From IMG/VR virus record IMGVR_UViG_3300014000_000001, positions 160,001 through 224,000 of that record: a DNA stretch of 64,000 nucleotides; one strand, written 5' to 3'. Origin of the DNA: a virus. Its lineage: Duplodnaviria > Caudoviricetes. Shown one piece after another: positions 1-62,342 of this stretch. The notes under the pieces are model-generated. The model saw only the letters and a program-made list of their open reading frames with translations. It made no database searches and was not told the origin of the DNA. How positions within the stretch are numbered: position 1 is the first letter of the stretch; each line of letters opens with the position of its first letter. A program made the translations under genes and the position numbers.

Positions 1-1
1 T

Positions 2-43170: not shown

Positions 43171-43263
43171 ATATTTACACCTGCGTATGTTATGAAATGG
43201 TCATCCTAATCATATCAAATGACATAAAGAGACCGCTATTATAATTTGCTCTCGGAGAGAATC

Positions 43264-45066
43264 ATGGCTAATATTGGCTACCCTTTAGATGAACTGGGGA
43301 CAAATCCAGATAACAAAGTTTTTGAAAGACGTGTTCTTACTGCAAAAGTGATTGATGGTCGTTGTTTCATGATTCCGAAAGTCACCCCATTCTTTGCAGA
43401 CGGTTTGAGTATCACAACAGGTACAACAACACTCATCCGTGACGTTGATTATCAATTAATCCTACATTCTCCAGAAATGGTTGAGCGTTTAGATAAAGAT
43501 GTTTATGCTGGTATTTTGTTTCACAAACTTACCTTGAACCAGATTGTAGATTTGAACTACCAAACTCCAGGTGGGGATTTTAACCTACCACTTGGACATA
43601 CTGCTGAAAACCTTGCTCGTTTGATGCGTAACCCACTTTATACAACTTTCTCACAAATCACTGGAACGCCAGCAGGGTTGCCAACGTTTTCACATATTGA
43701 AGACTGGAGTGCGGTGCAAGACTTTGGCGATTTAGTTAATAAGATGAACCTTATTTATCTAGCTTTGCTGGCTAAAGGTACTGGAGGTTCAGGTGGTGAT
43801 GGTTCAATATTCTTACAAGCATTACAAGATCACATCAATACAACAGGGCAAGCTCACACTAAAGAACAAGTGGGTTTAGGGAATTTACAAAACTATCCAG
43901 TAGCACAATACACGGATTTCAATGGACCAACTTATCCAATAAATCGATATGTGACACCACGAACAGTGATGTATGCAATCAACTTATTTATTGGTGATGC
44001 CATTGATAAAGTGAAAACTCAAATCTCAGATCTTGAAGCACTATCACAACAAACCCAATCTGATTGGAATCAATTACAGTTAGAGTGGAATGATTTAAAG
44101 ACTACGCTTAATGCGGTAAGTCAGAATTATCAACAAATGGTTCAGCAAGTTCAAGGATATCAACAAAATCTCGTCCAGTTAAATCAAAACTACGCAACGG
44201 TGATTCAGAACCAACAAACTTGGACACAAAAATTACAAGAAATCAACACCACGATGTTGGAGTATTCTCAAGACTACGTTGCGGTTATCCAAGCAAAAGA
44301 TCAATTGATTATTGAATTTAACGCATTGAAACAAGCTTATGATAGTTACGCTCAGTCGATTACAAATCTAACCAATGGGTTATCTAGTGCAGTTGCTCGA
44401 ATTACAGGGCTTGAAAAACATGCTCTTTATCCACAAACCAAAGTGATTACTCAAGGTTCTTACAACTTTAAAATCAAAGCAGGTGAGAAGTTTGAGATTA
44501 CCTTAATCGGTGCAGGTGGTGGCGTCGGTGAATATATCACGGATCCCCCTTCTCTATCTGCGATCATGAATGGTGAACATGGCGGTTCTACAAGCTTCTG
44601 GTGCTTACAATCAGACAATGGTGAATATACCCCAAATAACAAAGCGATTGCTGTGGCTGAAGGGGGTTTCGGCGGTTGCTCTAGCTATGGTAATGTTTCA
44701 GGTACTGTCTCTTCTTGGGGCATTGGTGGTCGTGGAGGTGCGTTTGAGGTACAACAATCCTTGATTGAACCTATTGAATTATCCAACGGTGAAGGTGGGT
44801 TAAAAGGTTATGGGGATTTCAATGCAACGATCTCTACTCAAAACCAAGGCTATGAATACTTCGGAACAAAGTGGGGTAAAGGAGCATTAACAAATAATGC
44901 GGTTGGTCAAGGTGGTGAAGGTGCAATCGCTTCATTCCGCTACGAAAACAAAACCCAAAAAGAATTAGATTTTCAGGTTGTCGTTGGTGTACGCGGACGT
45001 TCTTATAATCCGAGCAAAAACAATGCAACTGGCGGGTTAGCCATCATTAAGAAAATCACAACATAA
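43264..45066 (+). CDS. Tail fibre protein (phiKZ gp145/146-type N-terminus, coiled coil, Gly-rich C-terminal domain)
   Basis: ATG 43264 after GGAG; YPLDELGTNPDN, PFFADGL, H..TKEQVGLGNLQNY motif, Q-rich heptads, TLIGAGGG / AVAEGGFGG / VVVG.RG glycine-rich domain. Confidence 0.75.
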   Translation: MANIGYPLDELGTNPDNKVFERRVLTAKVIDGRCFMIPKVTPFFADGLSITTGTTTLIRDVDYQLILHSPEMVERLDKDVYAGILFHKLTLNQIVDLNYQTPGGDFNLPLGHTAENLARLMRNPLYTTFSQITGTPAGLPTFSHIEDWSAVQDFGDLVNKMNLIYLALLAKGTGGSGGDGSIFLQALQDHINTTGQAHTKEQVGLGNLQNYPVAQYTDFNGPTYPINRYVTPRTVMYAINLFIGDAIDKVKTQISDLEALSQQTQSDWNQLQLEWNDLKTTLNAVSQNYQQMVQQVQGYQQNLVQLNQNYATVIQNQQTWTQKLQEINTTMLEYSQDYVAVIQAKDQLIIEFNALKQAYDSYAQSITNLTNGLSSAVARITGLEKHALYPQTKVITQGSYNFKIKAGEKFEITLIGAGGGVGEYITDPPSLSAIMNGEHGGSTSFWCLQSDNGEYTPNNKAIAVAEGGFGGCSSYGNVSGTVSSWGIGGRGGAFEVQQSLIEPIELSNGEGGLKGYGDFNATISTQNQGYEYFGTKWGKGALTNNAVGQGGEGAIASFRYENKTQKELDFQVVVGVRGRSYNPSKNNATGGLAIIKKITT

Positions 45067-45078
45067 TTGGAGTCTTCC

Positions 45079-48000: not shown

Positions 48001-50592
48001 ACTACACCATTTAAACTTAAGAATGACTCCACTCCACCTAGTGTGGTGATTGAGGCTTATAGTGATAGTGGGCGTACCACTCAAGCGACTAGCTTAGATG
48101 AGGGTAAAACCTATTATGGTCGAGTGAAAATCACAAACCCGAACCCTAAAACAGTATTAGCTGTAAACAACCCATTTGCTAGTGAAACGACGAAAACGGG
48201 AACAGAGAAATTCGTTGGGCGTGATCAAAATCTGGTGATTCATAGCACCTCTAATAAAGTTGCTAAGGTTATTAATCCAGTCAATGATTACACTGTGGAT
48301 ATTTATGATTTTAGTTTCAGTTTGGTAAATGATAGAACCACGAATTCCAATCAACGTTGGTTAAGGTTGGTGGCTTTAGCAGATACGGTGAACTCTTCAT
48401 TGGCACTTAATGCAGTTTATCCAAACGATGATGTTGTGGGTAATGCGGGCATTTACAGAGCTTTACTTGATTTGAAGATCAATGATATTTCTAAGACAGC
48501 AACATTAGGTTTCCAATATTTAAACAGCGGCGGTTCTTCTGTTACAACCCTCAATGAGGGAGATGTAATGAAAGTAAGAATGAATTACACCAATGCAACT
48601 GTTGGGGATCAATATTACCTAACATTAGATTCAACGTCTGCAGTTGATCTTACTCGGTTTGAGTATCACGATTTCGAAACTCGGAAAACAGCAACTGCAA
48701 CAAGTGGTACCTTAGAGTGGAGTTTTAAATTTCTAAATAACCGTTTTACTAACGGGGATAAGATTCTTAAAATTGACTGTATGAATGAAACAGGAAATAT
48801 CAAATATGATCTTCCTGATTTTACGTTAGTCGACACCTCTAAAACACCATCTATTGATATTAGTTGGGGTTATGAAAGTGCTTTAATTACCTCAGTAAAA
48901 GAAGTTACGAATAATAGCCCCTATACCATTACGGTGGTTGTTGATAATGCCACAAGTTCAGAACAAGTCACACTACAAAACATTGGTGGTAGACCATTAA
49001 CTGATTTTGCATCACATGAGTTTAATACCTCAAAAGCAACAACGTTAGTAAGTGATAATCGTTATCAAGCTGTGTTCAATTTCAAAATGAAACCGAACAT
49101 GAAAGATGATACAGTTAATACGATCAATGTACGTGCGACGACTTCCAGCTCACCAACTGTGACTAAGGATTCTAGTATTACTGTTTTAGACACCTCTAGA
49201 ACCAGAAGTATCACTAAAACTGAATGGAGAAATTCAGCCAGTCCAAACGGTGGAAGTATCATTACATCGGTAAACGAAGGCCAAGCTGCTTATCTTCATG
49301 TTTACACTACAGGTGGTGAGGACATTTACGGGTTAAAACTCACTAACAATGGCGGGCGTAGCGCTTCTCGTTTAGCGCAAGGAACGTACGATAGTATTGC
49401 CAATCGAACAGGTTCAGATACTGCGGCAGTAGTCTGGTATTTCAGTCCTGCATTAGATGGTCTTACTAACAATGGAGATGAAACTCGTTTACGGGTTAAG
49501 GTTGAAATCGCCGATGATTCCACTAAGAACATATCTGCAGAGTTACCTATCAATGATGTATCTGTGGATACCACTGGCGTGTTCTTAACTGGGAGTGGAG
49601 ACACTGTTGACGAAGGTACTGCTTACAATGTTGCTGCTCGTTTAGACCGTATGGCGGTTGGGGTCACTTTTAGAATGCGTGCGACAACAGCTCATGGGAT
49701 TGACTTATCAGGTTCTAGTGCGAACTGGAAGAGTATGGGAAGCGGAGTTTATCAATATGATTTCTCAACTTCAACTTATCAAGAAACTTTTAATGTGACT
49801 AATTTACCACTTAAAATTTCTGCAGATAGTAAAATTACTCCTAGTAATGAGTTGAGTATTTTATACGAATTAATTGATGTAACTAAGAACCGTGTACTTG
49901 CAACCCGTACGGTTACGATTAATGATACTTCTAAACCAAACCCAGAGTATAGTATTAAATTAGTTGCAACAAATAATGCGAATGCCCCAGCTATCAGTAG
50001 TATGAAAGAGGGGGAGACTGCTTATATTGTGGTCACTACAAAATACTTCACAGGTCAGTTGAATATTGCTTATAGTGGGCAAAGTAGCACTAATGCCAAC
50101 ACACCATTAGTACCACCAGATATGACTGCGACTCGTTATTTTGATATCACCGAGTATAATGGTCAATCTGTAGTCTTACCGTTTAGAACTCAAAAAGATG
50201 AAAGTTGGAACAATGGCGGTAACAGTACTATCGTGTTGAAGAATTCTAGTTTTAATTCTTTGGCTTCAGTTGGTTTCACTATTGTGGAAAACTCAATCCC
50301 TGCTTCATTTGGGTCAGTTTATTGGGCATCAGACGCAGCAGGTGTAAATGTACTCTCTAACCAAACCTGCAGTGAAGGTGATACAGTTTATTTGATTGCT
50401 AAAACTGTCGGAATGGAACCTGGAGTTCCAATCAATGTTAGTTGGGGTGGTTCAACCACTAATGCTGATGACTTCAGTGAGGGAAGTACCGCGTCACCTG
50501 TAGCACTTTATGTAACGAACTACAACGCTAATGACTTTACTGGCATGGTGGTGTACAAGATGACGCTTAAAAATGATCTACGTTTAGGTTAA
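45079..50592 (+). CDS. Long tail fibre A with 12 complete and 1 truncated Ig/Calx-beta-like repeats
   Basis: ATG 45079 after GGAG; shared fibre N-terminus, NP...GYG.W..YIW domain, repeats bounded by [VI]xEG ... [IV]xDTS. Confidence 0.78.
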   Translation: MTFDPRHEIGEDYEGVSPRHSQVNEVREFTNDSNTRLFMPDCGPFYKNSLSIKNIADGKPLVQDIDYRCLIMDDVATEKSGKEVCGFIEVLDTNISSVIYDYRFVGGGHSTGYFVLRHLMQMYPDGINAITEWSNILNLPTEFDPSYHTHHVREIFNTEQMLIWLERIRCGVIEFYTENFKAIYDAAQTRIDNLYNKLDTEYVKITNEILAIFNKLKIQGEEYILTDNATNPASERGYGNWVLVKNTILYGAANTFVVGTGTLMALGSEQLIRNTYIWKNVENKTQPSYSLTADKQAINEGDSITFTIKALNTGVSSMALDWEIVGADALDIVGGLATGKVTLTGSNASTVTVTFAKDRRTEGDKTYYFKIRNVADLDVAFVVNDTSVTQTVGLEFRKTNIGAVSSILEDDTVTLAINTVGFNGKTLNLTWSGLTNADFSQPPPTSVAITSNTTLLELKTVGNLKADGDRILKVEARDAADTSYLAASAQVLVKDTSLSLEASISFIVNGLLTTTVNEGNNFNIRINTNGGVGRKLRLEYSSNKQLTEFSGLLEQVTIQTGNVVEITAQHHENNATALVQEYLRVKVFDVNTNIQLDDKILQFKDTSLTPNYVSYFSSDAAGTNEITEVNEGSKFYFIMKVANWVPGADLPTNDFNYLLNGVTQTLPNLQARITNGFYNRLIFGGTNNKTGVTWSGGNQLAIEFTAVADQKVSGDTDFSVQVKPIAVANWEITRSIRINDTSIAAITAQWSSAQNTLVPISSIDEMNSVGENKTAWLWLGTTGDLRGLGDLQLDVSGNIQEDDFVTTFPITTKFTAVNQTLKIPVTVRADFTTEGTESFTLTASYQTNKGLRRNFASAYLTVNDNSNELPLSVALSGTNNDVAGYSEWKPITVTVTSAVLAYATNVTALIQYEDGSDATERFQQIALTGSHPANSSTMNLTLIPKANRKTYSKNNFKITTIRNLSDGTQISTGNTTPFKLKNDSTPPSVVIEAYSDSGRTTQATSLDEGKTYYGRVKITNPNPKTVLAVNNPFASETTKTGTEKFVGRDQNLVIHSTSNKVAKVINPVNDYTVDIYDFSFSLVNDRTTNSNQRWLRLVALADTVNSSLALNAVYPNDDVVGNAGIYRALLDLKINDISKTATLGFQYLNSGGSSVTTLNEGDVMKVRMNYTNATVGDQYYLTLDSTSAVDLTRFEYHDFETRKTATATSGTLEWSFKFLNNRFTNGDKILKIDCMNETGNIKYDLPDFTLVDTSKTPSIDISWGYESALITSVKEVTNNSPYTITVVVDNATSSEQVTLQNIGGRPLTDFASHEFNTSKATTLVSDNRYQAVFNFKMKPNMKDDTVNTINVRATTSSSPTVTKDSSITVLDTSRTRSITKTEWRNSASPNGGSIITSVNEGQAAYLHVYTTGGEDIYGLKLTNNGGRSASRLAQGTYDSIANRTGSDTAAVVWYFSPALDGLTNNGDETRLRVKVEIADDSTKNISAELPINDVSVDTTGVFLTGSGDTVDEGTAYNVAARLDRMAVGVTFRMRATTAHGIDLSGSSANWKSMGSGVYQYDFSTSTYQETFNVTNLPLKISADSKITPSNELSILYELIDVTKNRVLATRTVTINDTSKPNPEYSIKLVATNNANAPAISSMKEGETAYIVVTTKYFTGQLNIAYSGQSSTNANTPLVPPDMTATRYFDITEYNGQSVVLPFRTQKDESWNNGGNSTIVLKNSSFNSLASVGFTIVENSIPASFGSVYWASDAAGVNVLSNQTCSEGDTVYLIAKTVGMEPGVPINVSWGGSTTNADDFSEGSTASPVALYVTNYNANDFTGMVVYKMTLKNDLRLG

Positions 50593-50598
50593 ATAAAG

Positions 50599-50628
50599 AA
50601 TCCGAAGGAGCCTAGGCTCCTTCGGATT
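50599..50628. terminator. CCTAGG-centred perfect palindrome (30 bp)
   Basis: aatccgaaggagcct|aggctccttcggatt, TATG at 50632. Confidence 0.72.
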
Positions 50629-50666
50629 TCCTATGAACACATCTATTTACTAATAGAGATAAGACT

Positions 50667-53600
50667 ATGCTAAACGAAAATGCAATAGAGGATTTCCAAG
50701 GAACGGATATTTCTCACTTCATTCCAAACGAAGTACGTAAAAATATTAACCTTCAAATTGAACGCGTGATTATCCCTGCTTATGGCTCGTTTTTAGTACA
50801 TACTTTAAAGCCTAGGCACATCAATACTAAGTTACCTTTAACTCGCGGTAAAGACTATGAGATTTTATCTATTGATGAAAGAGCAACATTAAAAGCAGGC
50901 CGTGAAGTTGCACATGGTTTTGTGCTAATAAATGAAAACATCCCAGGGGTTGAATACGATTATCACTTTATCGGTGGTTTATATTCTAATGGTAAGTACT
51001 TGATGGATGAAGTGAAGAAACGTTATCCAAATGGTATTACACCTAACTTCGTTTTTGATTATATTAAAGGTAAACCAGAAACCTATCCAGCAAAAGACCA
51101 TATACATTCTGCTCATGACACCTATGGTTATGATGGCGTTAATAAACAGCTTGATCGGGTAATCCACGGAATCGAACGTGGGGCGGATACTAACTTAGCA
51201 AATATCTATATCCGTGCATCAGATAAACTCGCTGAGATGGAAACCACAACCACGAACGATATTAATACAATTCGTCAGAAACTTACAGATGCATTTGAAG
51301 CACTGAGAGTACAACAAGGTGAGTACATCTTTACTGATTCTTTGGATAATCCATCGATTCTTCGAGGGTATGGAACATGGGTGCGTGTCACCAATACTAT
51401 CTTGAAAGGCGCACAATCTGATATTATCGTGGGTGATGGTACATTGCTCTTAAAAGGGAATGAGCAACCTTTACGTAACACTTATATCTGGATGAATAAA
51501 GATAGCATTGTTGCGCCAACATATACCCTATCTATCCAAGGTGTAACTAAGACCAACAATAAATGGCCTGTGAATGAAAACACAACTTTTAAAGTTTTAA
51601 TTCAAACCACAGGGATTGCAAAGAACACAAAACTTGCTTGGTTAATCACTGGTATCGATGATCAATACATTGATGCAAGTGTATCTAAGATGACTGGAGA
51701 GTTTGTTATCAATGATCTAGGTCAAGCAACGGTTGATGTGCGATTACTTGATAACCCTAATGAGCTTGGCAATCGTGAATGTGTGTTCATGTTGGAACAT
51801 ATCGCAAATACTAGCTTAAACATCTTGGTTCAAGATACCATTCGTGCTAAATGGGTGGAGATGTTCTTTAGCCATGATAACTTAGGTAAAGTTAAAGCTG
51901 TGCGCATCAATGAGGGTGAGATCGTTTATCTGCAATTGAAGTTCTACGGTTATAGCGTGGGTGAGGACATTTATTTAGATTGGTCACAAAGTACCGTATT
52001 AAGTAATGAGTTTGAAATTGTACCCCCGTCTCTTTTATCTGCAACCGCATCAACTATGACAGTGGCGTTAAAGGTAAAAGCAAATCAATTAACTGATGGC
52101 GAGCGATCTTTAATTGTTTATTCTAAGAATGCCCCTTTAGATGCTGTGAGTAGTACGGATTCCGTGGCTTATGTTTTTGTTCAGGATAGTTCAGTTTCAA
52201 CCAATGTGAATATTGATTTTAAATCCACAACTGGAACCATTCTTACTAGCCTTAGTGAGGGCGATACATTTAGTATTAGCCTAACCACCTTACTCCCTAA
52301 AGATAGCGTGTTGGAATTGATTTATGAAACCAGTAAATCCTTAGATGAATTCACTGGGTTACAATCAACAGTAACAATTGATGTTAACGGTAAAGCCTCC
52401 TTTAATGTCACAAATGCAGTAGACTTCTTAACCAATGAAGGGGTGCAGCTGTTCAAAGTAACTGCCCGTTATCAAGGACAAGATGTATCGACAAATAGTA
52501 TTATTATTAAAGATACATCACAAACCCCGAAGTACACTATGACTATCACCGCACCAAATAGCACAACTCCAATTGCTAAAGTCAATGAAGGGGATGATTT
52601 CTGGGTGCGTTTAGCTGTTGCGGGTTGGGTAAATACTCCGTACCCTCCAACGATTGTATTTAACTATGGGTTAAATGATGATTATTCAGCCAATTCAAAA
52701 GTGCGTGATCGGGTAAACTCATCATTTCATGATCGACTACCTTATTCCAATGCCGCAGGAAGTTATAATGATGTTAGTTGGGTAAATGGTGCAGAGCTTA
52801 TCTTAAAGATGACTGCAATTGCTGATCGTAAATTCAGTGGAAATGCAAAATTCAATGTAAGTATGAAGCAAAGTAATATGGATCAATTCCTATTACAATC
52901 ATCTGTACAGATCATGGATACTTCTGTTTTAGATATTGCAACTGCTTGGTCAAGCTCAGGAGTGATTCTAAATCCAATTACCCAAGTCAATGAAATGCAA
53001 ACAGATGGTAGTAACAATACATTCTATTTGTGGATGGATGTTGATGGGGATGGGTCTTTATTTAATGACATCACTATCAACGCTACAGGTAGTGCAACTG
53101 CAAGCGACTTCGTTACAGTATTCCCATCTGTGGTAAACTTTGATACAGGTAAATCCAGAAAGATATTTGCTATTACTTTATTGTCTGACTTCTTAAATGA
53201 AGGGAATGAATCATTAACATTATATGGTACTTATGTTGATGTAAACGGTAAAGTTACAGAAGTGTTCAGAACTAGCATTACGATCATTGATAACTCAATT
53301 CTAGTACCGCTTGACGTTAAACTCTCGACCTCGAATACCGACCCTGATGCAGCACCATCAGGTGGTAAGTTTTCTGAGTATGGCGTGATCTACGCGCATG
53401 TAACCTTTCCAGCTTATGTGATGAATACCAACATTGAATGGGATGTATGGACGCTAACAGGAACTGCAGCTAACGGGCAGGTTACTCCAGTGAACGGTGT
53501 GGTGAACGCTCCAACAGGAAGCTCAGGTGTGGTGATTCAGATCAATCCTATTGCCGATCGTTTACAAGATGGGGAATTTAAAGGTCTGATTAAAGCTCGA

Positions 53601-56216
53601 CGTCGTTTGGTTTCAGGGAATAAGATTATCGGGATGAATGAGAATATTCCATTTACCCTTTTGGATGACTCTGTACCAATGACAATTGTCACTAAAACCT
53701 ATAAGGATGCTGCTCGAACCCAAGAGAGTACAATCTTTAATGAGGGTGATATCGTTTACGGTCGCACAGTGGTAAGTAACCCAAGCGGGGACTATTTTCT
53801 CACCAACAATATCACTACAGGTAACAACGACACCACAGATGCAACCTATACCTATTTAGGTGCAACTGGAACTGTAGTCACTTATGCTGATCAGCAGAAA
53901 GTGAAAAAGGTATTTAGCGCAGTTGCGGGTGTGGTGAGTTACACGGATGATTTTGCAATCACTCTTAGACGTAACCGAACCACTCAAGCTAAACCACAAG
54001 TAATTAAGGTAGGTGGTATTGTTTGGAAGAATACGGGTAATTGGGTTGTTGGAAACACTTACCCATCCGTGTGGGATGATACCCAACTTAACTCAGTGAA
54101 AACAATCACCGTAAATGACTCTTCCAAAACCCCTAGCTATGTTGTAAACGCAGGCTTAACTGAAAACTCAGCGCGAGCTGATAACTTTGATGAAGGGTTA
54201 GCTTTTGTTGTTTCTTTGAACATTAGTGATGGTGAAATTGGAGATGTTTATACTCTAACAAAGACAGGTAACTTTGAACAAGAGCGGCTAGAGGTGAGCC
54301 AATATGGTGTTGAACAAGTAACCAACGCCTATAACCAACGCTTAAGTTGGAATTTCAAATCGTATATTGGTCGTAACACCAATACTTGGACAACTTTAGG
54401 TTTTGATGTTTGGAATAAAACCACAGGCCTTAAGATTGGACATATTGATGTCAACATCAATGATATTTACAAAACTCCAACCTTACAAATGCGTTGGATG
54501 ATTGGTACAACTGATTACGCTGTGGATATCGATGAGGGTGATTCTCGCTATGAAGTTGTAGTTACTGGTGATCAATATTTGTTAGGTGATGAAGCTATTA
54601 AGTTAAGCATTGTTTCTGGACGCCCACTTGCAAAATATGGCAACTCCGCTAATTTTGATAAATGGTATCCAGTAAATATTGTAAATGGTGTCCCTACAGT
54701 TCGTATCCCTGTTTATCCGTTGGCAGATAAATACACCAACCCGGCAGCGGAATTGATCGCAAACCTAAAGGCTGTTACTTCGGTTACCAATGCTTCAGTT
54801 ACTTTATCTCGTGCAATCAATGATAATTCCCAAACCCGCGCATACACTCTAGTGGGGTGGTATTATCCAGGTGGGACAACTCCAATCTCTTCAGTAAATG
54901 AAGGTGATACGGTTGAGATGCGGGTTAAGGTCACGGGAGGTACTGATATTGTTCCAGTTAAACTCACTAACAACGGTGGTAGAACCGAATACATCACCCA
55001 CGAGTACGGTGTGACTAAATCGAGAACTTCTGATAATGCTGAATTGACTTGGACGTTCACTATCGGGAAGGATTTTAGAGATGCTACAGGTGATCAGATG
55101 CGACTACGAGTTAATCTTGAGATCACCGATACTTCGAGTACAACACGAACTGAAACCCTACCAATTAATAACACCAGCGTTGCGTCAGCGGGTGCGTGTA
55201 ATTTCTACGCTAGTGGTACATCTACAGTAATTACTTCAATAAAAGAAGGAAGTAATTTTGATGCAAACTTCCAACTGAGTAAGTGGAACACTGGTAGTAA
55301 TTATCGCTGTTTAACTAAGTCCTCAAGAAACGGAACAGAGTGGAAAGTAGATTCAACCAGTATAGGTAGTAATTGGACAACCTCAGGTTCAAATAAGGTA
55401 ATTAAGTTCCCATTATCTGTTAATGGAGATTCAACCACAAATACAGGTGGGGAACTTTATATCACTTCTGAACTTTGGGATATGGATGCGGGTCGTTTAT
55501 TAGCGAGTAGTTCACTCACTATTATCGATATATCTCGTGAACCTTTAAGCACTAACGATATGCGAATTGCAGCAGTAGGTGGAACTGCACAGATTTCCCA
55601 AATTAATGAAGGGAATACCGTAAGGCTCTATTTCTTACCAAGTTGTTTTGCGGGCACGGATTGGTCTGACAGTAAGCAATTTTATTGGTGGTTAGGTAAT
55701 CCAGGCGGTGGAGCTAATTCCAAGTTCGCCGATGGCTATATCCCTCAATCAAGTTTAGCGGGTGATGGATCGTATAGCGTTAATGTTCCAATTCCAGCAA
55801 ATGAAAGTACCGATGGTGATCGTACAGTTAGAATTGAACTCTATGAAATGTTTGGTTCTGGTAACGGTACTTACTTTAGAGGTAACTCTGCTAATTGTGT
55901 AATTAAAGATACATCTATTACACCATCAATTGATCAGGTCTACTGGGCGTGGGACTCTGCTGGAGGTAATCCAATTTCGGTCAACGGATCAGCCAATGAA
56001 GGTGACACAGTTTATCTGATTGTACAAGGTAAAGGTCTAGCTAACAATGGTGCAGATGTGACGGTAAGTTTGAATTGGGACGGCACAGCATCTGCAGCAG
56101 ATTTTGATACAACTCTCCCATCCTCTGTTACATGTAAACAATATACCACTGGTAGCACAACTTACTATCTTGGTTCCGTTCAGGTGAAAATCAAAGCAGA
56201 TGGAGTTGAAGGTTAA
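50667..56216 (+). CDS. Long tail fibre B, collinear paralogue of fibre A
   Basis: 1849 aa; same domain order with 12 complete repeats and a truncated 13th. Confidence 0.78.
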   Translation: MLNENAIEDFQGTDISHFIPNEVRKNINLQIERVIIPAYGSFLVHTLKPRHINTKLPLTRGKDYEILSIDERATLKAGREVAHGFVLINENIPGVEYDYHFIGGLYSNGKYLMDEVKKRYPNGITPNFVFDYIKGKPETYPAKDHIHSAHDTYGYDGVNKQLDRVIHGIERGADTNLANIYIRASDKLAEMETTTTNDINTIRQKLTDAFEALRVQQGEYIFTDSLDNPSILRGYGTWVRVTNTILKGAQSDIIVGDGTLLLKGNEQPLRNTYIWMNKDSIVAPTYTLSIQGVTKTNNKWPVNENTTFKVLIQTTGIAKNTKLAWLITGIDDQYIDASVSKMTGEFVINDLGQATVDVRLLDNPNELGNRECVFMLEHIANTSLNILVQDTIRAKWVEMFFSHDNLGKVKAVRINEGEIVYLQLKFYGYSVGEDIYLDWSQSTVLSNEFEIVPPSLLSATASTMTVALKVKANQLTDGERSLIVYSKNAPLDAVSSTDSVAYVFVQDSSVSTNVNIDFKSTTGTILTSLSEGDTFSISLTTLLPKDSVLELIYETSKSLDEFTGLQSTVTIDVNGKASFNVTNAVDFLTNEGVQLFKVTARYQGQDVSTNSIIIKDTSQTPKYTMTITAPNSTTPIAKVNEGDDFWVRLAVAGWVNTPYPPTIVFNYGLNDDYSANSKVRDRVNSSFHDRLPYSNAAGSYNDVSWVNGAELILKMTAIADRKFSGNAKFNVSMKQSNMDQFLLQSSVQIMDTSVLDIATAWSSSGVILNPITQVNEMQTDGSNNTFYLWMDVDGDGSLFNDITINATGSATASDFVTVFPSVVNFDTGKSRKIFAITLLSDFLNEGNESLTLYGTYVDVNGKVTEVFRTSITIIDNSILVPLDVKLSTSNTDPDAAPSGGKFSEYGVIYAHVTFPAYVMNTNIEWDVWTLTGTAANGQVTPVNGVVNAPTGSSGVVIQINPIADRLQDGEFKGLIKARRRLVSGNKIIGMNENIPFTLLDDSVPMTIVTKTYKDAARTQESTIFNEGDIVYGRTVVSNPSGDYFLTNNITTGNNDTTDATYTYLGATGTVVTYADQQKVKKVFSAVAGVVSYTDDFAITLRRNRTTQAKPQVIKVGGIVWKNTGNWVVGNTYPSVWDDTQLNSVKTITVNDSSKTPSYVVNAGLTENSARADNFDEGLAFVVSLNISDGEIGDVYTLTKTGNFEQERLEVSQYGVEQVTNAYNQRLSWNFKSYIGRNTNTWTTLGFDVWNKTTGLKIGHIDVNINDIYKTPTLQMRWMIGTTDYAVDIDEGDSRYEVVVTGDQYLLGDEAIKLSIVSGRPLAKYGNSANFDKWYPVNIVNGVPTVRIPVYPLADKYTNPAAELIANLKAVTSVTNASVTLSRAINDNSQTRAYTLVGWYYPGGTTPISSVNEGDTVEMRVKVTGGTDIVPVKLTNNGGRTEYITHEYGVTKSRTSDNAELTWTFTIGKDFRDATGDQMRLRVNLEITDTSSTTRTETLPINNTSVASAGACNFYASGTSTVITSIKEGSNFDANFQLSKWNTGSNYRCLTKSSRNGTEWKVDSTSIGSNWTTSGSNKVIKFPLSVNGDSTTNTGGELYITSELWDMDAGRLLASSSLTIIDISREPLSTNDMRIAAVGGTAQISQINEGNTVRLYFLPSCFAGTDWSDSKQFYWWLGNPGGGANSKFADGYIPQSSLAGDGSYSVNVPIPANESTDGDRTVRIELYEMFGSGNGTYFRGNSANCVIKDTSITPSIDQVYWAWDSAGGNPISVNGSANEGDTVYLIVQGKGLANNGADVTVSLNWDGTASAADFDTTLPSSVTCKQYTTGSTTYYLGSVQVKIKADGVEG

Positions 56217-56219
56217 TAA

Positions 56220-56239
56220 AAGGTGGGGAAACCCACCTT
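56220..56239 (+). terminator. Short GNRA-loop hairpin between fibre B and adhesin gene
   Basis: aaggtggg-gaaa-cccacctt; weak U tract. Confidence 0.5.
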
Positions 56240-56258
56240 CTAATTTAGGAATCTAAAC

Positions 56259-57755
56259 ATGGCAATTAATGAAACAATTACTGCGACAGCTTCTTTAACT
56301 ACTTCTGGTGGGAAGAATTTAAGTTTACGTGGAAATACCTTAACCATTAACGATACATCAAATAACGATATAGTTATTGATATTACTAAAGACTGGAAAA
56401 CCTCGGCAGCATCAAGTGCTTATGGTGGTTTATACATTAAACCTACATTAAATTTATCAAACGAAGTAAAAGCTCGTTTCGGTGGGTTTGAATCAGGTAA
56501 GCGTTATATTTTTAGAATCGCGAGTGATGTGGTGCTTTTAGCAAATAGCACATCAGCTCAAGCGATAATGGATGGAGATTGGCCATCCACGATTGAAAAC
56601 CCAAGAGTGGAAAACTATGGCTTGATTATGGGGCGTGGTGGTAATAATGGTGTGGGGGGTGGTTTGAATGGACGTAATAGTTATTACACGCCTAAAATTA
56701 AACCAACGGTTGGAGGTAGTGCGATCGGTAGTATTAGCGCCCCTATATTAGTAAACAATTATGGTGGGATATGCTCGGGTGGTGGTGGTGCTGGGTCAAA
56801 CACTGAGTATTCTCAATATTCTAAGATCAGTGGTAGTAATCAGGATTATTACTCCGTAATGATAGCTGCAATTGCATCAGGTGCAGGTGCTCCTTTTGGG
56901 GTCACAACGCGTGATATTAACGTCCATAATGATATTGTGATAATGAATCAGGCTATGCCTTGGTTCAGTGGGCGTTCAGCAACATTTAATAGTAATGAGT
57001 TAGTTACTCCCTACAATGCTAACCTTAACTACGTTAAATATGTAACTATTCGAGTAAACTACCAGGATAACACACTAACGTTGACGGATACCAAAATCAA
57101 CAACACTCGAAGTTTTAATGTTCAATCTTACCCACAGTGGTGGGCTGATCGCAGAAACGCGGGTAATGGTCCAGAAATCGGCTATCTTTTCAACTATAAA
57201 CAAAATAACACCAAGAATTATCGACCACCGTATAATGGGGACCCAGCAGATCAAGGTGGTTATTTGGATAGCGTTACTCCTGCAGGGTTGTTTAGGGGAG
57301 GTCGTGGAGGTAATCCAGAAGTGAATTTAATGTTTGACCTATATCTTATGCGTTTTATACCGTGTATGACTCCAGCACAGTCACAAGTTTGGCGTGATCG
57401 TTGGCGTGGCGCTAATGGTGGGGATGTTGGCAAGTCAGGTAATGCTGGAATCAATACCCCTCTTTGGACGATGAACTATCAATCTGCCAATAGAGCCAAT
57501 TATCGTTATTTAGAGGGAGCTCAAGGAACCATGTGGGGTGTGGGCGCTACCGCAGATAACTACTATTATGGAACCACTGATGGTGGGGCTGCGGCAGGCC
57601 CATTGACTATTGGTAACGTCACTATTAATAATCTAAATGGGGGTGTTACTGGAGGTGACGCTGTACTGGACAAATACGACCCTAACGGGACGTTTGATGT
57701 TAACGCTCGAGCCGCTGCAAATAATGTAACTTTAGAATTTCCATGCATCTATTAA
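56259..57755 (+). CDS. T-even gp38-like glycine-rich adhesin (fibre tip)
   Basis: AGGA RBS; ENYGLIMGRGGNNG, NNYGGICSGGGGAG, GAGAPFG, GGRGG, GGDVGKSG and GGAAAG motifs in gp38 order. Confidence 0.7.
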   Translation: MAINETITATASLTTSGGKNLSLRGNTLTINDTSNNDIVIDITKDWKTSAASSAYGGLYIKPTLNLSNEVKARFGGFESGKRYIFRIASDVVLLANSTSAQAIMDGDWPSTIENPRVENYGLIMGRGGNNGVGGGLNGRNSYYTPKIKPTVGGSAIGSISAPILVNNYGGICSGGGGAGSNTEYSQYSKISGSNQDYYSVMIAAIASGAGAPFGVTTRDINVHNDIVIMNQAMPWFSGRSATFNSNELVTPYNANLNYVKYVTIRVNYQDNTLTLTDTKINNTRSFNVQSYPQWWADRRNAGNGPEIGYLFNYKQNNTKNYRPPYNGDPADQGGYLDSVTPAGLFRGGRGGNPEVNLMFDLYLMRFIPCMTPAQSQVWRDRWRGANGGDVGKSGNAGINTPLWTMNYQSANRANYRYLEGAQGTMWGVGATADNYYYGTTDGGAAAGPLTIGNVTINNLNGGVTGGDAVLDKYDPNGTFDVNARAAANNVTLEFPCIY

Positions 57756-57759
57756 TTTT

Positions 57760-57789
57760 AATTCAATGGAGCCTAGGCTCCATTGAATT
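57760..57789. terminator. CCTAGG-centred perfect palindrome (30 bp)
   Basis: aattcaatggagcct|aggctccattgaatt, TATG at 57791. Confidence 0.72.
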
Positions 57790-57822
57790 TTATGACATTT
57801 TATAATTCAGAGATAAACTCTC

Positions 57823-60800
57823 ATGGCTTTAATATTCCCGTTTGACTCAACATTAAAAGGCTATGTCGAAGAAGTAGAAATTAATATCTCTAATCTCGAA
57901 TATCCAATTTTCACCTTCCCTAAAGGTTCGTTCTTTGTATCTGAACTTTACGGTATTGTTAAAGGCACTAGAACTATCGTTCGCCCTGGACTTGATTTTA
58001 AAGTACTTAGTTTAAATGAAACCATTCAATTTAATGATAGCGATACTAACTTAAATACCACTTTAAAACAAAACTATGTTCGTAACGGCATTCTTTGGTG
58101 TGGCAGGCAAGACGTTGGTACGATTGTTTGGAAGGTACCTTATTGTGGCGGTGAAGACAGTAATAAACCTGCTCAATACAGTAACTATATTGCCACACTT
58201 TATAACCAAGCTCGCACGCTAGGCACAATTAACCTATATGGAATTAAACAACAAGCTTGGGGTGGATTTATTCATCCTGAAAATAAACAAATTGTATCGG
58301 GACGTGATATCTATAATAAGTATTTTGACTACTATGAGGACATCAATAACAACGGCGGTTTGGGTTGGGGTAAAGTTCATCTTTCAATGATGGCATTAGC
58401 CGAGGTTGTTGCAAATGGTGGAGATCCAATGGAGATTCAAGCCTTTTACGACTGGCTTAGAAAATATGAAATTGAATACACCAAATACAAAGATAGCATT
58501 GTTGCTAATTTAAACCAACAAATTGAAAACCTTGATCAAAAGCGGGTAGGGTTTGAGCAGTTTGTTTATTCTAATGGGAATTACAATCATTACAGTAAGC
58601 ACAATTATAAAGAATTGAATAATGTAATACTTCGTGGTTTAGATCCTGACGAAACTGGGTTTCAATTAAACCCAATTAAAACCAACAGAAATAATGTAGG
58701 TCATTATGCCTTAGGTGTATGGGGTAATGACTTTGATCTAAAAGCAACTCGATTATCACAACGTAAATCCATTGCAATAGATACGAGTCCGTTTAAAATA
58801 TCAATCACCTATGTAAAACAAACTACCTCAGGTAGTAATCCACGTAACATTCAATATGGGGTTAAATTTGAAAATATAGAAAAAGCATCGAGCGGAGTCT
58901 ATACCGCTTATATTATCTCTAAACGTTTAGGGGTGATTGCAACGTTGGATGTAAGTAGATATATCACGGGATTAAGTGGAAGCTCTACGATTGGGACCTC
59001 AGCACAATACCCTGGAGGTAGTACTGATTATGCTGATGATATTATTTTCATTTTTGTAGCCAATGAAAATATGCAGACCGATTTCATGGCTGAGGTGGGT
59101 CGTTTGCGTTACATTAGCTATACTCGTAACTATGGTTACACGCTTAGCGTTGACACTCGTGGGTTGATTATTACTAATGGGGAGTTGATTTCTAAAAACC
59201 CTGAATTAGACTTAACGCAAGATAATGCAATTGGAACCAGTAGTGTTGAAGTAACGATCACTCGCCAGTTCTCTGATTACGTTGAGACAAACTATTTAGC
59301 TGCGGTGGATGTAAAAGATATTGGTAGTGCAATCAACAATACAGTGAACGCAATGGCGACAATCAATTGGGCTGCAGGTGAAACCAAAAAGATTGTTAAG
59401 GTGAGTAATAGTGACGGGTTATTTACACGTGACACCACAGTTGCAATCCAACTCCATCGCACTAATCAAGTGAATGTTCCAATCGCAACAAGACAAATCC
59501 TCGCTACGGTACTTGTGGGTCAGCGTAAGAGTACTACAAATAACGTAGCTTACATTGAACTCTTAGATAGTGAAGAAAATGGTAATCCAGTTACTTTACC
59601 AAAAGACGGTACTCGTTACTATTTATCGGTGCAATACGCTAAGAACTTTAACTTTCACCGAGTAAACCCTACACTGAAAGTGGCTAACATAGTGGGTAAC
59701 CCTGGTAACGTTTTGATGGGTACTCCAAAATTCATCGATGTGGGTCATGTTATCTACCCGATTCAGTTTTTAGATTTCAAACCAACCGCAGGATTAAATT
59801 ACTTTGAAACTTCGCTTGAATTGGTTGACCCAAATAGCTCTTTTAGCACCAATCGCATTAACTTATATATTGCTCACCAATCGGTAAATTTTGCAGGAGC
59901 TGGTACTTTTAATCTGGTTGAGTTTCTTACAGTGGAAGCAATAGGCGGAGTGATCACTACGTTTAGATATCGCCCAACTAATCTAGGGGTGATTCCAAAC
60001 CTAACTGCGTTTAACTTGTCTTTATCGAATAATGCTACAGTGGTTAATCCTCCTATCTACCTGAATGATCAATTGGAATTTAGTTTTTTCACCCCAGATG
60101 CATCGATAGGTAAGCCTGTTAATATTGAGGTTAGTTATGTTAATGCTTCAGGGCAAAGTGTAACCGTAGTCAATATGGTGAACACTTATAACTTTAGAGG
60201 AGCTAGATTAGATTTTATTTCTCCTTCAAATATGGCGATTATTAACCGCCCACGACTAGGGGAGCCATTTAAGATCCGTTATCGCGGTGAGTTTAACGTA
60301 ACCCCAACTAAAGTATCGGTAAGTATTGATACTACTATGAGTGATCGCAATAATGTTAATTGGAGCGGGGATGCACCTGATCTACAAAACCCAACATTGA
60401 GTGGGGTTGTTGTGGCGAGTGATAAAACTGCTTGGGTGAATGCTGGAACACAAATTAGTGTAGCTGAAGTTATCAACACGACAACATATCAAGATTACGC
60501 TAAGGTTTATTTTAAAGTGGTGAGTGAATTCCCAGATGGTACAACTAATGTTAGCTTGGTAATGAAAGAATTCTTAATTGAATCCTTCGATATTAAATTC
60601 TATCGATTAGGAAGCAACGAAGAAATCACCGATGGTGTGTTTGTAAGTGGTACATCAGCAATTATGTCTGTTACTTCCAAAACTATTGATCTAAGCTCGA
60701 TAAATTATGTCACAATTTATGGAAGTGGTTTTGTGTATAAAAACCTAATAGTAGATGCAACGAACAACACTGTTAAAGCGGTGTTCGACATCACTACGGT

Positions 60801-60885
60801 ATCTGATGGGCCTTTTAGTCCAAAGATTTCAATTGGAGGCTATGAGGTTTATGAGCGTAAACAATTCAGAATTGTCGCAGCTTGA
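57823..60885 (+). CDS. Tail fibre-like protein (divergent member of the same N-terminal family)
   Basis: 1020 aa; FPFD, PKGSFF..L, GLDF..L, YCGG N-terminal pattern shared with 43264/45079/50667; beta-rich remainder. Confidence 0.62.
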   Translation: MALIFPFDSTLKGYVEEVEINISNLEYPIFTFPKGSFFVSELYGIVKGTRTIVRPGLDFKVLSLNETIQFNDSDTNLNTTLKQNYVRNGILWCGRQDVGTIVWKVPYCGGEDSNKPAQYSNYIATLYNQARTLGTINLYGIKQQAWGGFIHPENKQIVSGRDIYNKYFDYYEDINNNGGLGWGKVHLSMMALAEVVANGGDPMEIQAFYDWLRKYEIEYTKYKDSIVANLNQQIENLDQKRVGFEQFVYSNGNYNHYSKHNYKELNNVILRGLDPDETGFQLNPIKTNRNNVGHYALGVWGNDFDLKATRLSQRKSIAIDTSPFKISITYVKQTTSGSNPRNIQYGVKFENIEKASSGVYTAYIISKRLGVIATLDVSRYITGLSGSSTIGTSAQYPGGSTDYADDIIFIFVANENMQTDFMAEVGRLRYISYTRNYGYTLSVDTRGLIITNGELISKNPELDLTQDNAIGTSSVEVTITRQFSDYVETNYLAAVDVKDIGSAINNTVNAMATINWAAGETKKIVKVSNSDGLFTRDTTVAIQLHRTNQVNVPIATRQILATVLVGQRKSTTNNVAYIELLDSEENGNPVTLPKDGTRYYLSVQYAKNFNFHRVNPTLKVANIVGNPGNVLMGTPKFIDVGHVIYPIQFLDFKPTAGLNYFETSLELVDPNSSFSTNRINLYIAHQSVNFAGAGTFNLVEFLTVEAIGGVITTFRYRPTNLGVIPNLTAFNLSLSNNATVVNPPIYLNDQLEFSFFTPDASIGKPVNIEVSYVNASGQSVTVVNMVNTYNFRGARLDFISPSNMAIINRPRLGEPFKIRYRGEFNVTPTKVSVSIDTTMSDRNNVNWSGDAPDLQNPTLSGVVVASDKTAWVNAGTQISVAEVINTTTYQDYAKVYFKVVSEFPDGTTNVSLVMKEFLIESFDIKFYRLGSNEEITDGVFVSGTSAIMSVTSKTIDLSSINYVTIYGSGFVYKNLIVDATNNTVKAVFDITTVSDGPFSPKISIGGYEVYERKQFRIVAA

Positions 60886-60897
60886 AAGGATTGAATT

Positions 60898-61386
60898 ATG
60901 TTTAATATAAAATTTAGCCGAGAAGGGGCAATGGTGTACTCAAAACAAGCCAGTCAGATTCTCGGTAAGAATTATTGGTATTTACGAGATGATGTGAAGG
61001 TGAGGATTGAGTTTAAATCCCTAGTTTGGAGTTTCATTATTCCTCAAGGTTATCTAACTGATGGAGCTACCGTACCTCGTCTCGCTTGGAGTATCGTTCC
61101 ACTTTGGGATGAATGTACCAATGCTGTATTGTTGCATGATTATTTATGCAATTACTCAGTAACGTCAACAGACGGGGAACTCTATCCTTTAAACCGTAAA
61201 GATATTGATCTGTTATTTTTACGGACAATGGAGTTCTATGGAGTACATTGGTTTAAACGTAAATTAATGTATGGGTGTGTGCGTCTTTGGGCGAAACTCT
61301 TTAAATATGAAAAACCAATGATCTCAACCAAAAAATATGAAATGGAAGAGATGATTCGTGAAAACATTCGATTGGGGTATTACTAA
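60898..61386 (+). CDS. DUF1353 family protein
   Basis: IPQGYLTDGATVPR, AVLLHDYLC, RKDIDLLF and KRKLMYGCVR motifs. Confidence 0.85.
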   Translation: MFNIKFSREGAMVYSKQASQILGKNYWYLRDDVKVRIEFKSLVWSFIIPQGYLTDGATVPRLAWSIVPLWDECTNAVLLHDYLCNYSVTSTDGELYPLNRKDIDLLFLRTMEFYGVHWFKRKLMYGCVRLWAKLFKYEKPMISTKKYEMEEMIRENIRLGYY

Positions 61387-62342
61387 TGGCTGATGAATTA
61401 GTACAAGCGAAATTATCATTTACTATGCCTATTCGTGGAACTACGGTATCTGTGAATGCACCGCCTTTGATAGTAAAAGATAAAGTTCCTACCTTTAGTT
61501 TAGTGCCAGCCTCAACATCAGTCAATGAGGGATCAACTTTCTGGATCACTTTGTTCACGAGCAATATTCCAAGAGATGGTTCAGTTAAAGTGAGATGGTG
61601 GTTAGATTGGTTGAATGGTTCTGGTGCGAATGATGTAGTCGGTGGTGCTGGAAATCCATATGTGGTTTATTTGGCTTCGGATGGTACTCATCGAATGGGG
61701 TGGGATATTATTGCAGATAATCTAACCGAAGGCACTGAATCATTCAATGTGCGCTGTCAGGTGTTCAGAGAGAGTGATAATTATCAATATGCTGATCTTA
61801 GTTTGAATGGGATCTATGTGAATGATACGTCTAAAAATAGTGTCAACTACTATAATTTATCAAATATCAAAGATGATAAATCTCAGATATTAAGATATAG
61901 TCGATACGATAGTTATCCAAGTTATCACAATGATGATGGAGGGACAATCTGGGTTGGAGGTAACGATAGCGCATATGGGTCATTGGATCCACAAAGCGTT
62001 GTGTTGGCAGGTAATACATATACCATCGATTATATGACCATTATATCATCACTCAATAATACGGGTGAATATTATTCGTATATATCTTTACTCCTTAAAG
62101 GGGATAACCCAGCGCAGTTGGCAAAACTAAATAAATCCACAGTTAGTATTGTGATCAATGGTATGGAAATTCCTTTATTTTGCTACATGACTTTACAAAA
62201 TGGTGACATCTATAAAGGATTTAGTAACACTGATCGCGTCGCAGTGATGGATTCTGGAGGAGCCACTGTGCCTTTCCCTAGTAATGCTTCCTGGCTTAAC
62301 ATCCCAGCATCTGGAAGTATGCTGTTCAAATACACAGGCTAA
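61386..62342 (+). CDS. Putative fibre tip protein (one Ig/Calx-beta-like repeat plus unique C-terminal domain)
   Basis: TAATG coupling; SVNEG..ADNLTEGTESF..VNDTS repeat of the same type as in fibres A and B. Confidence 0.68.
   Translation: MADELVQAKLSFTMPIRGTTVSVNAPPLIVKDKVPTFSLVPASTSVNEGSTFWITLFTSNIPRDGSVKVRWWLDWLNGSGANDVVGGAGNPYVVYLASDGTHRMGWDIIADNLTEGTESFNVRCQVFRESDNYQYADLSLNGIYVNDTSKNSVNYYNLSNIKDDKSQILRYSRYDSYPSYHNDDGGTIWVGGNDSAYGSLDPQSVVLAGNTYTIDYMTIISSLNNTGEYYSYISLLLKGDNPAQLAKLNKSTVSIVINGMEIPLFCYMTLQNGDIYKGFSNTDRVAVMDSGGATVPFPSNASWLNIPASGSMLFKYTG

Follow-up and report, generated by a model that had tools for sequence, protein, structure and literature searches.

The window, a 64,000-nucleotide stretch that is part of a 232,790-bp phiKZ-like jumbo phage genome, contains four paralogous fibre genes with an N-terminal anchor in common, homologous to the phiKZ gp131 family. 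Two of them, fibres A and B, carry about 13 Calx-beta-like immunoglobulin (Ig) repeats each and end in a cut repeat, here termed a socket. Two separate tip genes begin with a short peptide, here termed a plug. The features are as follows.

43264..45066, + strand: short fibre paralogue of ~600 aa, with a gp131-family anchor and coiled coil at the N-terminus (phrog_2163, residues 9-371, E 8e-42) and a glycine-rich C-terminal domain
45079..50592, + strand: fibre A, with an anchor of ~290 aa and 12 complete Calx-beta-like repeats, closed by a half-repeat (phrog_2163, E 2e-30)
50296..50592, + strand: socket A, the 13th repeat with strands A-E only, ending ...KNDLRLG then stop
50600..50627, + strand: terminator-like hairpin of 28 nt, 3' of fibre A, with TTTCCTATGA after the hairpin
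50667..56216, + strand: fibre B, with an anchor domain and a run of Calx-beta-like repeats that ends in a half-repeat (phrog_2163, E 2e-20; tblastn to phiKZ-group structural proteins)
55917..56216, + strand: socket B, the 13th repeat with strands A-E only, ending ...KADGVEG then stop (AlphaFold2 pLDDT 89-96)
56217..56258, + strand: spacer between fibre B and tip 1, with a second TAA, a hairpin (56222-56237), a third in-frame TAA and an AGGA ribosome-binding site
56259..57755, + strand: tip 1 (498 aa), with a B-type plug and a glycine-rich putative adhesin body
56259..56360, + strand: plug B, tip 1 residues 1-34, strands F-G according to AlphaFold2 and alignment to whole Calx-beta domains
57823..60885, + strand: third long fibre paralogue of 1020 aa, which shares the anchor type at its N-terminus and lacks Calx-like repeats
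60898..61386, + strand: DUF1353 protein (PF07087, E 5e-19), annotated in PHROGs as a tail assembly chaperone (phrog_1158, E 3e-31)
61386..62342, + strand: tip 2 (318 aa), in which an A-type plug leads into one complete repeat (~61482-61832) and then a C-terminal domain of 169 aa
61386..61481, + strand: plug A, tip 2 residues 1-32, identical in P0031 and homologous to the plugs of L002, L011 and L012

The anchors, segments of ~200-370 N-terminal residues, match phrog_2163 with E-values from 2e-20 to 8e-42 and phiKZ-group proteins of the gp131-135 region by tblastn (E 1e-7 to 6e-5); the match in KTN4 lies within the gene block upstream of the endolysin. As with phiKZ gp131-gp135, several paralogues in the same genomic neighbourhood share an N-terminal anchor and differ in their C-terminal parts, but the phiKZ proteins are short (~460-770 aa), gp131 has a fused propeller, and neither an Ig-repeat shaft nor separate tips are described there (PMC13250141). 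The phiKZ paralogue N-termini build a hetero-hexameric fibre base, and the distal fibre was not buildable in the cryo-EM atlas (PMC13250141). Relatives of the locus, all from ENA, Logan and NCBI assemblies, are cited by L and P numbers. The homologue P0027 begins at the same ATG as fibre A (45079); the short paralogue has a listed open reading frame from TTG 43246, and its relatives begin from ATG. The DUF1353 gene keeps company with the third fibre rather than with tip 2, being found in L001, L003 and L009, all of which lack tip 2. Scans of IMG/VR and JGI metagenomes with the tip 1, tip 2 and third-fibre alignment recovered no relative, and neither megablast of the module nor tblastn of tip 1 matched any INPHARED phage, fibre B matching these phages via its anchor domain only.

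Across the whole 233-kb genome, an HMM of the repeat matches fibre A, fibre B and tip 2 only. The last repeat of each fibre is cut after strand E, at an acidic D-x-x-x-G turn, and strands F and G are absent; the original prediction that the two 13th repeats stop at the same point holds in coordinates and in sequence. Fibre A closes with TAA-A-TAA ahead of its 28-nt hairpin, the same hairpin being found after fibre genes in L001, L002 and L011, while fibre B closes with TAA TAA and then its own hairpin. Twelve fibre-B homologues (32-96% identity) end in D-x-x-[ED]-G followed by a stop, and seven fibre-A homologues (28-99% identity) are cut at the same turn, with an end like that of socket A, K[NA]D-x-x-x-G then stop, in P0028, P0029, L002, L007 and L008. 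A cut position kept in relatives so diverged offers what we regard as the strongest argument against a chance gene break, which the original prediction had likewise argued against.

Both tips open with a stretch of ~30-34 residues that is homologous to the F-G strands of complete repeats. Tip 1 begins MAINETITATAS and runs on to TLTINDTS, and tip 2 begins MADELVQAKLSF and runs on to PPLIVKD before entering its complete repeat. The proposal that these genes open with precisely the two missing strands is borne out, with ~32-34 residues matching the F-G segment; the plugs are colinear with it over the same 30-residue length and share its E...I-x-D-T-S landmarks. Against an HMM of the intact-repeat F-G tail, the tip 1 N-terminus ranks first of ~3,900 candidate N-termini outside the fibre genes and matches end to end (HMM 2-30 on residues 5-34), with an E-value that by itself is no better than 0.34; the tip 2 peptide has no significant match to this HMM. 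A phmmer search of 1.84 billion proteins aligned residues 2-32 of tip 2 to a D..L.EG.E...INDTS segment found ahead of a full repeat in numerous tandem-repeat proteins. An HMM of the plugs, applied to N-termini throughout the 233-kb genome, matched the two tips alone, and all 11 of the 11 tip 1 homologues start M-[AP]-x-[ND]-E-[TS].

The tips are transcription and translation units separate from the fibres. It is conceivable that fibre and tip are nevertheless one polypeptide, through read-through, frameshifting, ribosomal bypass or protein splicing, or that the break is a sequencing artefact or a pseudogene, given that fibre B and tip 1 share a reading frame both in the window and in L009, and that the hairpin after the stop resembles the T4 gene 60 take-off site. 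We consider this highly improbable. Three to four in-frame stops of differing kinds, plus the hairpin, separate fibre B from tip 1; the two frames differ in L001-L004; bypass would find no matching landing codon; each tip is preceded by a good ribosome-binding site; and plug A is encoded 11 kb from fibre A. Intein motifs are lacking, both pieces are homologous to ordinary repeat strands, and assemblies made independently from many samples show an identical cut. On these grounds the read-through, bypass and intein readings were rejected.

Sockets and plugs travel together. Each cut fibre end with readable downstream genes is accompanied by a donor of the matching type: A and B sockets with A and B plugs in the window, L007, L002 and L011; a B socket only with a B plug only in L001 and L003; and an A-type socket only with two A-type plugs in L012. 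The final alignment of fibre ends and tips (MAFFT) included the L009 read-through row as a bridge. Plugs are kept, whereas the bodies attached to them diverge or give way to others: identity to the window tip is 94% in the plug and 39% in the body for P0015, and identity to tip 2 is 100% and 43%, respectively, for P0031; the L003 tip has only its first ~98 residues in common with tip 1. The body of the B-position tip of L011 resembles that of the A-position tip of L002 (40% identity, E 2e-52), and one tip body type is found behind both plug types. At the DNA level, the window and L007 are 50-70% identical over distal fibre B and 57-81% identical over the tip body, with an island of 90-99% at 56009-56450 that comprises socket end, spacer and plug; the conserved island at the joint sits within a hypervariable region. 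Varied tip genes behind the same N-terminal peptide (P0015, P0031, L003, L011) are what the original prediction anticipated of relatives, and its host-range swapping reading agrees with the exchange of bodies behind conserved plugs.

Structure prediction points in the same direction. AlphaFold2, given socket B, the read-through linker and tip 1 residues 1-51 as a single chain, placed the tip hairpin in the fibre B half-domain to give a full Calx-beta-like sandwich (mean pLDDT 82.4, pTM 0.75; socket 89-96, linker <50, and ~95 for the plug strands at tip 1 residues 5-14, 20-24 and 28-31), with the caveat that two homologous halves in one chain may yield a remembered familiar fold. The completed beta-sandwich expected of truncated repeat B and its peptide is predicted by the model. 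It superposes on solved Calx-beta domains as a seven-strand sandwich, with Z 7-8 and 17-23% identity, and other Ig-like folds score similarly, so that the fold class is certain and the Calx-beta family is not. Individual matches are to NCX1 CBD1 (3gin; Z 7.9, rmsd 3.1, 111/116 residues, model 1..149), CALX-CBD1 (3ead; Z 7.8, rmsd 2.9, 106 aligned, chain 442..552), 3us9 (Z 8.1) and 3fq4 (Z 7.0). The half-domain of P0025, modelled without a plug, aligns only to 442..519 of 3ead (strands A-E; 76 residues, Z 3.4), and the completed model gains ~30 aligned residues over the half-domain alone. P0025 is a fused fibre with a hairpin-like C-terminus, and its model is too poor (mean pLDDT 53, hairpin 61-70, structural matches ending at residue ~100) to support or exclude completion in cis.

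The completed model shares its fold with Calx-beta domains (NCX1 CBD1/CBD2, CALX, integrin beta4; PF03160), and the sequences have landmarks in common with them: an N-E-G within the first loop, a D-x-x-x-E-G-x-E ahead of strand F and an I-x-D-[TN]-S following strand G. PF03160 was found in none of the window proteins at the gathering score, nor even at E 10 for the fibre B repeats and tip 2, and its sole trace is a 'faint' precomputed match on the distant homologue P0029. Foldseek against the PDB returned weak generic Ig matches only, and phmmer of the intact repeats against PDB sequences no useful match. We know of no natural split form of a Calx-beta domain.

Not every fibre end conforms to the socket pattern. 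The fibre A homologues of L001, L003 and L004 stop earlier still (...RLKS, ...VRTS and ...RLKAR then stop), no plug gene for them was found within the flanks examined, and these half-domains may be unplugged or served by another partner. In L005 and L006 the half-domain continues directly into a different C-terminal domain, in which HMM searches detected no F-G-like hairpin. A single reading frame for fibre and tip in close relatives, named in the original prediction as evidence against it, is thus partly realised in form, but the fusions carry neither the F-G strands nor the same tips; they complicate the idea of a joint and do not refute it. Half-domains with no identified plug and fusions without F-G strands, together with the poor fit of the tip 2 peptide to the intact-repeat tail HMM, are what would be seen if the half-repeat were a self-sufficient cap and the tip peptides were relics of gene fission or docked elsewhere, on the baseplate or another fibre. 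Relics should decay, but conservation is higher in the plugs than in the bodies that follow; the position of the plugs within the conserved DNA island, the co-occurrence of socket and plug types and the confident AlphaFold2 placement of the hairpin in the socket also weigh against a cap, which we judge rather unlikely.

For the A pair, the ESMFold2 complex of socket A with plug A scored 0.58 against 0.01 for the best of three controls (contact agreement between runs at least 89%, partner pLDDT at least 65), which lends weak support to the pairing of fibre A with the 61386 peptide: 58 of the 80 solved complexes attained the ESMFold2 mark, as did 2 of the 110 mismatched pairs, and scores of 0.60 or lower came from only 7 of those 80 solved complexes together with both passing mismatches. 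Modelling of truncated repeat A with its peptide, also proposed at the outset, gave a score above its controls. A weak score could also arise if the tips attached to the fibre ends via the N-terminal peptide by edge-strand augmentation or a looser peptide-domain contact instead of core completion, and known phage docking peptides do bind complete domains (PMC13352976). We hold such contact to be unlikely, as the plugs are colinear homologues of F-G with the same length and landmarks, and the completed model superposes on whole Calx-beta domains over ~30 residues more than the half-domain.

Fold complementation in trans is supported, agreeing with every computational test run, and we propose, at a probability of roughly 70%, that the locus encodes a fold-complementation joint by which exchangeable tips are mounted at the far ends of two long tail fibres. 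In this model, the plug hairpin would insert into the half-domain and finish the sandwich, and the tip body would exit where strand G ends, at the very point at which a further repeat would otherwise start. The B socket (..[ED]G) would take the M-x-x-N-E-T plug encoded directly downstream, and the A socket (..[LAP]G) the M-x-D-E-[LIV] plug whose gene follows that of the DUF1353 protein; the cognate specificity of both pairs is inferred, and the pairing of A with 61386 is suggested by co-occurrence and the weak complex score. Each fibre is probably a single chain, which would give one tip per chain. The plug-and-socket arrangement appears to let receptor-binding tips be swapped: the joint would be preserved through recombination of distal repeats and tip bodies, and host-range modules could thereby be exchanged without redesign of the attachment.

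If correct, a split Ig-like joint would explain how host-range modules are exchanged with the attachment untouched, and would supply a sequence rule for orphan tips in metagenomes, namely a fibre end D-x-x-x-G then stop plus a gene start M-x-x-[ND]-E. A natural two-strand complementation pair would also join the short list of self-assembling protein joints. The cut falls among the clustered acidic loops used for calcium binding in Calx-beta domains, and a metal site might accordingly be restored by plugging. It is possible, if speculative, that the A and B types form two orthogonal, essentially irreversible two-strand joints of this kind, that one socket takes alternative tips (as the two plugs of L012 may indicate), and that the 30-34-residue plugs could serve as portable tags for mounting arbitrary domains on fibres or for non-covalent protein ligation.

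The original prediction likened the attachment to donor-strand complementation. In chaperone-usher pili (Fim, Pap), the following subunit uses its N-terminal extension to complete an Ig-like fold without its C-terminal strand or strands. In fibres A and B the last repeats similarly lack C-terminal strands, and their supply by the tip N-terminus is predicted, with AlphaFold2 plug strands at pLDDT ~95 and a weak complex score for the A pair, but the locus does not belong to the chaperone-usher systems: two strands would be donated instead of one, the connection is a one-off at a fibre tip and not polymerisation, assembly would be cytoplasmic, and the domains are of Calx-beta type. Scanning the seven module proteins with Pfam and PHROGs gave DUF1353 and phage virion families only, with no PapD-like chaperone or usher. 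Literature searches, incomplete in coverage and so leaving absence unproven, returned no relevant paper on strand complementation in phage tails or fibres.

Among published systems, the nearest to this one is the docking peptide of KP32/K1-5-type phages, in which the secondary receptor-binding protein, like the tips here, carries a conserved ~30-aa N-terminal peptide with exchangeable bodies behind it. There, the partner of the peptide is an intact, trimeric T4gp10-like domain close to the tail. Here, the peptide would itself provide the F-G hairpin that a split Ig-like domain lacks, and the joint would lie at the distal end of a long repeat fibre; neither Pfam nor PHROGs revealed a T4gp10-like branching domain in fibre A or B. 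The gp38 adhesin of T2 and S16 joins the trimeric gp37 tip via its own N-terminal domain. Precomputed PF05268 matches to T-even gp38 are listed for tip 1 and its homologues, while hmmscan at E 10 and phmmer against PDB sequences gave none; the likeness is that of a separately encoded, glycine-rich adhesin capping a long fibre.

The window covers bases 160001-224000 of a single source contig of 232,790 bp (G+C about 38%), and its tail-fibre module consists of seven genes, all on the plus strand:

43264-45066, +, short fibre of 600 aa (ATG start as in homologues)
45079-50592, +, fibre A (ATG start as in homologues)
50667-56216, +, fibre B
56259-57755, +, tip 1
57823-60885, +, third long fibre
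60898-61386, +, DUF1353 protein
61386-62342, +, tip 2

The TTG starts as listed for fibre A (45067-45079) and the short fibre (43246-43264) are probably wrong; homologues point to the ATGs at 45079 and 43264. An N-terminal anchor is common to all four fibre genes and matches phrog_2163 (E 2e-20 to 8e-42) and, by tblastn, structural proteins of phiKZ-group phages; the match in KTN4 falls in a series of paralogous structural genes that lies upstream of the endolysin. Given these matches to phiKZ-group structural proteins, the phage is phiKZ-like. In the cryo-EM atlas of phiKZ, gp131 and the paralogues gp133-135 form the hetero-hexameric fibre base with their N-termini, and building of the distal fibre was not possible (PMC13250141). 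A composite fibre with A and B as its single-chain arms is the probable arrangement.

Cutting fibres A and B at [IVL]-x-[DN]-x-S yields mutually alignable units of about 100-135 residues, and an HMM of these units finds matches in the whole genome only in fibre A (13 hits), fibre B and the protein of gene 61386. At the end of an intact unit, D-x-x-x-(E)G-x-E is followed by strands F and G and then by I-x-D-[TN]-S. The last unit of each fibre, here called its socket, is a half-domain that stops short of these strands, at K-N-D-L-R-L-G in fibre A and at K-A-D-G-V-E-G in fibre B; both the truncation and the starts of these units at 50296 and 55917 are exactly as originally predicted. A pair of stop codons and a hairpin rich in G+C follow each of the two genes. 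The cut itself is conserved among relatives. All homologues of the fibre B end (32-96% identity; proteins P0018-20 and P0022-24 and the fibres of the homologous loci L001, L002, L007, L008, L009 and L011) stop after D-x-x-[ED]-G, and those of the fibre A end (28-99% identity; P0027, P0028, P0029, L002, L007 and L008) stop after K-[NA]-D-x-x-x-G.

The claim that genes 56259 and 61386 open with the missing strands also holds, as their first 34 and 32 residues, which we call plugs, match the F-G tail of intact units. Residues 1-34 of tip 1 run from the conserved Glu through I-N-D-T-S with a 30-residue span equal to that of intact units, and residues 1-32 of tip 2 end in I-V-K-D, with a complete repeat next. 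When an HMM of the F-G tail, trained on intact repeats only, was applied to the N-termini outside the fibre genes, tip 1 ranked top among all candidates with an end-to-end alignment at a weak E-value of 0.34, and the tip 2 peptide gave no significant match. In a phmmer search of 1.84 billion proteins, residues 2-32 of tip 2 align to a segment A-D-x-L-T-E-G-x-E...I-N-D-T-S that comes before a complete repeat in numerous proteins with tandem repeats. An HMM built from both peptide types matched the two tip N-termini in the 233-kb genome; since both were in its training set, the informative part is that it found no third plug-like N-terminus there. Homologues of tip 1 (30-85% identity) all start with M-[AP]-x-[ND]-E-[TS] and carry I-x-D-T-S at about residue 34.

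Read-through, frameshifting and an assembly error are excluded as origins of the break between fibre and tip, because 3-4 stops, together with a hairpin and a ribosome-binding site, lie in the spacers between fibre B and its tip, in the window and in relatives, and because the reading frames of the two genes differ in L001-L004. Fibre and tip are in frame in the window (56214-56258) and in L009 (5292-5366), a coincidence. The hairpin core AAGGAGCCTAGGCTCCTT after fibre A (50605-50622) recurs with two mismatches after tip 1 (57766-57783), and a nearly identical hairpin lies 3' of fibre genes in L001, L002 and L011. The spacers read, all after fibre genes, have TTTCCTATGA (or TTTTCTATGA, TTTTATGA) downstream of the hairpin, and together they possibly form a cassette boundary of terminator and late promoter.

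Socket and plug types occur together. A fibre A end of the form K-[NA]-D-x-x-x-G is accompanied by an M-[AG]-D-E-[LI] gene after the DUF1353 gene in the window, L007, L002 and L011; no such gene follows the DUF1353 gene in L001 and L003, where fibre A ends in ...RLKS and ...VRTS, respectively. The distant locus L012 has one fibre with an A-type end and two downstream genes with A-type plugs (M-T-D-E-V and M-A-D-E-K) and differing bodies. A B-type plug gene directly follows every B-type socket with a readable downstream gene.

Varied tip genes behind the same N-terminal peptide, for which the original prediction proposed a search, are present among relatives. Homologue P0015 is 94% identical to tip 1 in the plug and 39% in the body, and P0031 is 100% identical to tip 2 in the plug (36 identical residues) and 43% in the body; the tip of L003 has only its first ~98 residues in common with tip 1. 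In L011 the tip at the B position carries a B plug, and its body is 40% identical (E 2e-52) to an A-position, A-plug protein of L002. DNA identity between the window and L007 is 97-100% over the greater part of the module, 50-70% in the distal fibre B repeats (about 54.1-56.0 kb) and, for the body of tip 1, 57-81%, with an island of 90-99% at 56009-56450 that comprises socket end, spacer and plug. The joint is kept constant within the most variable part of the module and, judged from this alignment, positions 54060-57800 are a recombination mosaic centred on presumed host-range determinants.

Since fibre B and tip 1 are in frame by chance, a single-chain read-through construct could be folded, translated from 55917 with TAA read as Gly, in which a linker of 15 residues connects socket B to residues 1-51 of the tip. 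With a 22-row alignment, AlphaFold2 gave a mean pLDDT of 82.4 and a pTM of 0.75, with the socket at 89-96, the linker below 50, and strands at tip residues 5-14, 20-24 and 28-31 each at ~95. In VIA-align the whole model (1..147-150) aligns to Calx-beta domains, including NCX1 CBD1 3gin (Z 7.9, rmsd 3.1, 111/116 residues), 3us9 (Z 8.1) and CALX-CBD1 3ead (Z 7.8, 106 residues, chain 442..552); further matches are to other Ig-like domains, 9jdh being the best (Z 9.8). The half-domain of P0025, a relative's fibre fused to another C-terminal domain and modelled without a plug, aligns to those entries in its first ~100 residues alone (3ead, Z 3.4 over 76 residues, chain 442..519; 9jdh, Z 5.0), which indicates that the plug fills the F-G part of the fold in the B-pair model. 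Calx-beta domains have strands F and G beside strand C in one sheet; if this order holds, the modelled hairpin would be buried in the fold and not added at its edge. For socket A with the tip 2 plug, an ESMFold2 complex weakly supports pairing, with a score of 0.58 (best of three controls 0.01) in a range, up to 0.60, that holds only 7 of 80 solved complexes and both passing mismatches; runs agreed in at least 89% of contacts, with a partner pLDDT of at least 65. Of the 80 solved complexes, 58 reach the mark applied, as do 2 of 110 mismatched pairs. A completed beta-sandwich, as expected in the original prediction, is predicted with confidence for the B pair; for the A pair, a complex is weakly supported.

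Conservation, co-occurrence, mosaicism and one confident fold speak for the proposed fold complementation, and on this basis we consider it probable, at roughly 0.7, that the tips complete the half-domains of fibres A and B in trans. Full-text literature searches returned no account of strand or fold complementation in the tails or fibres of phages. The closest published system follows the same logic on a different structural principle: in KP32, K11, K1-5 and G7C-type phages, the secondary receptor-binding protein has a conserved docking peptide that binds the primary one's T4gp10-like branching domain (PMC13352976). The closest mechanistic analogue is donor-strand complementation in chaperone-usher pili, which differs in its single donated strand, chaperone and usher, none of which is present at the fibre-tip joint.

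As a rule, fibre ends in this family carry a half-domain. Fibre A homologues in L001 (1-4311), L003 (4818-9926) and L004 (4906-9960), of about 1,685-1,700 aa, stop a few residues earlier, right after strand E and without the D-x-x-x-G turn (...RLKS, ...VRTS and ...RLKAR), and no plug gene for them was found in the flanking DNA examined. In the fibres of L005 (10001-15673) and L006 (3329-9925, 10001-16549), of 1890-2198 residues, the half-domain is directly fused to another domain, glycine-rich in L005 and with a repeated h-h-h-G-G motif in L006, the latter suggestive of a propeller as in phiKZ gp131. In form, these fusions come close to the single reading frame of fibre and tip that the original prediction named as a refutation, but an HMM detects no F-G hairpin in them, and the fold predicted for one of them, P0025, was of poor quality, with its matches limited to that N-terminal stretch of ~100 residues. 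Given the early ends and the fusions, a plug supplied in trans is only one of the observed solutions. After the L009 tip lies an extra 185-aa gene (L009:7025-7582), the N-terminus of which weakly resembles a plug (plug HMM, 14.9 bits). The body of this gene has a homologue (E 2e-12) in a C-terminal extension that the 654-aa L001 tip carries as a fusion (L001:10001-11965); this may represent a second joint, split or fused, a step further out.
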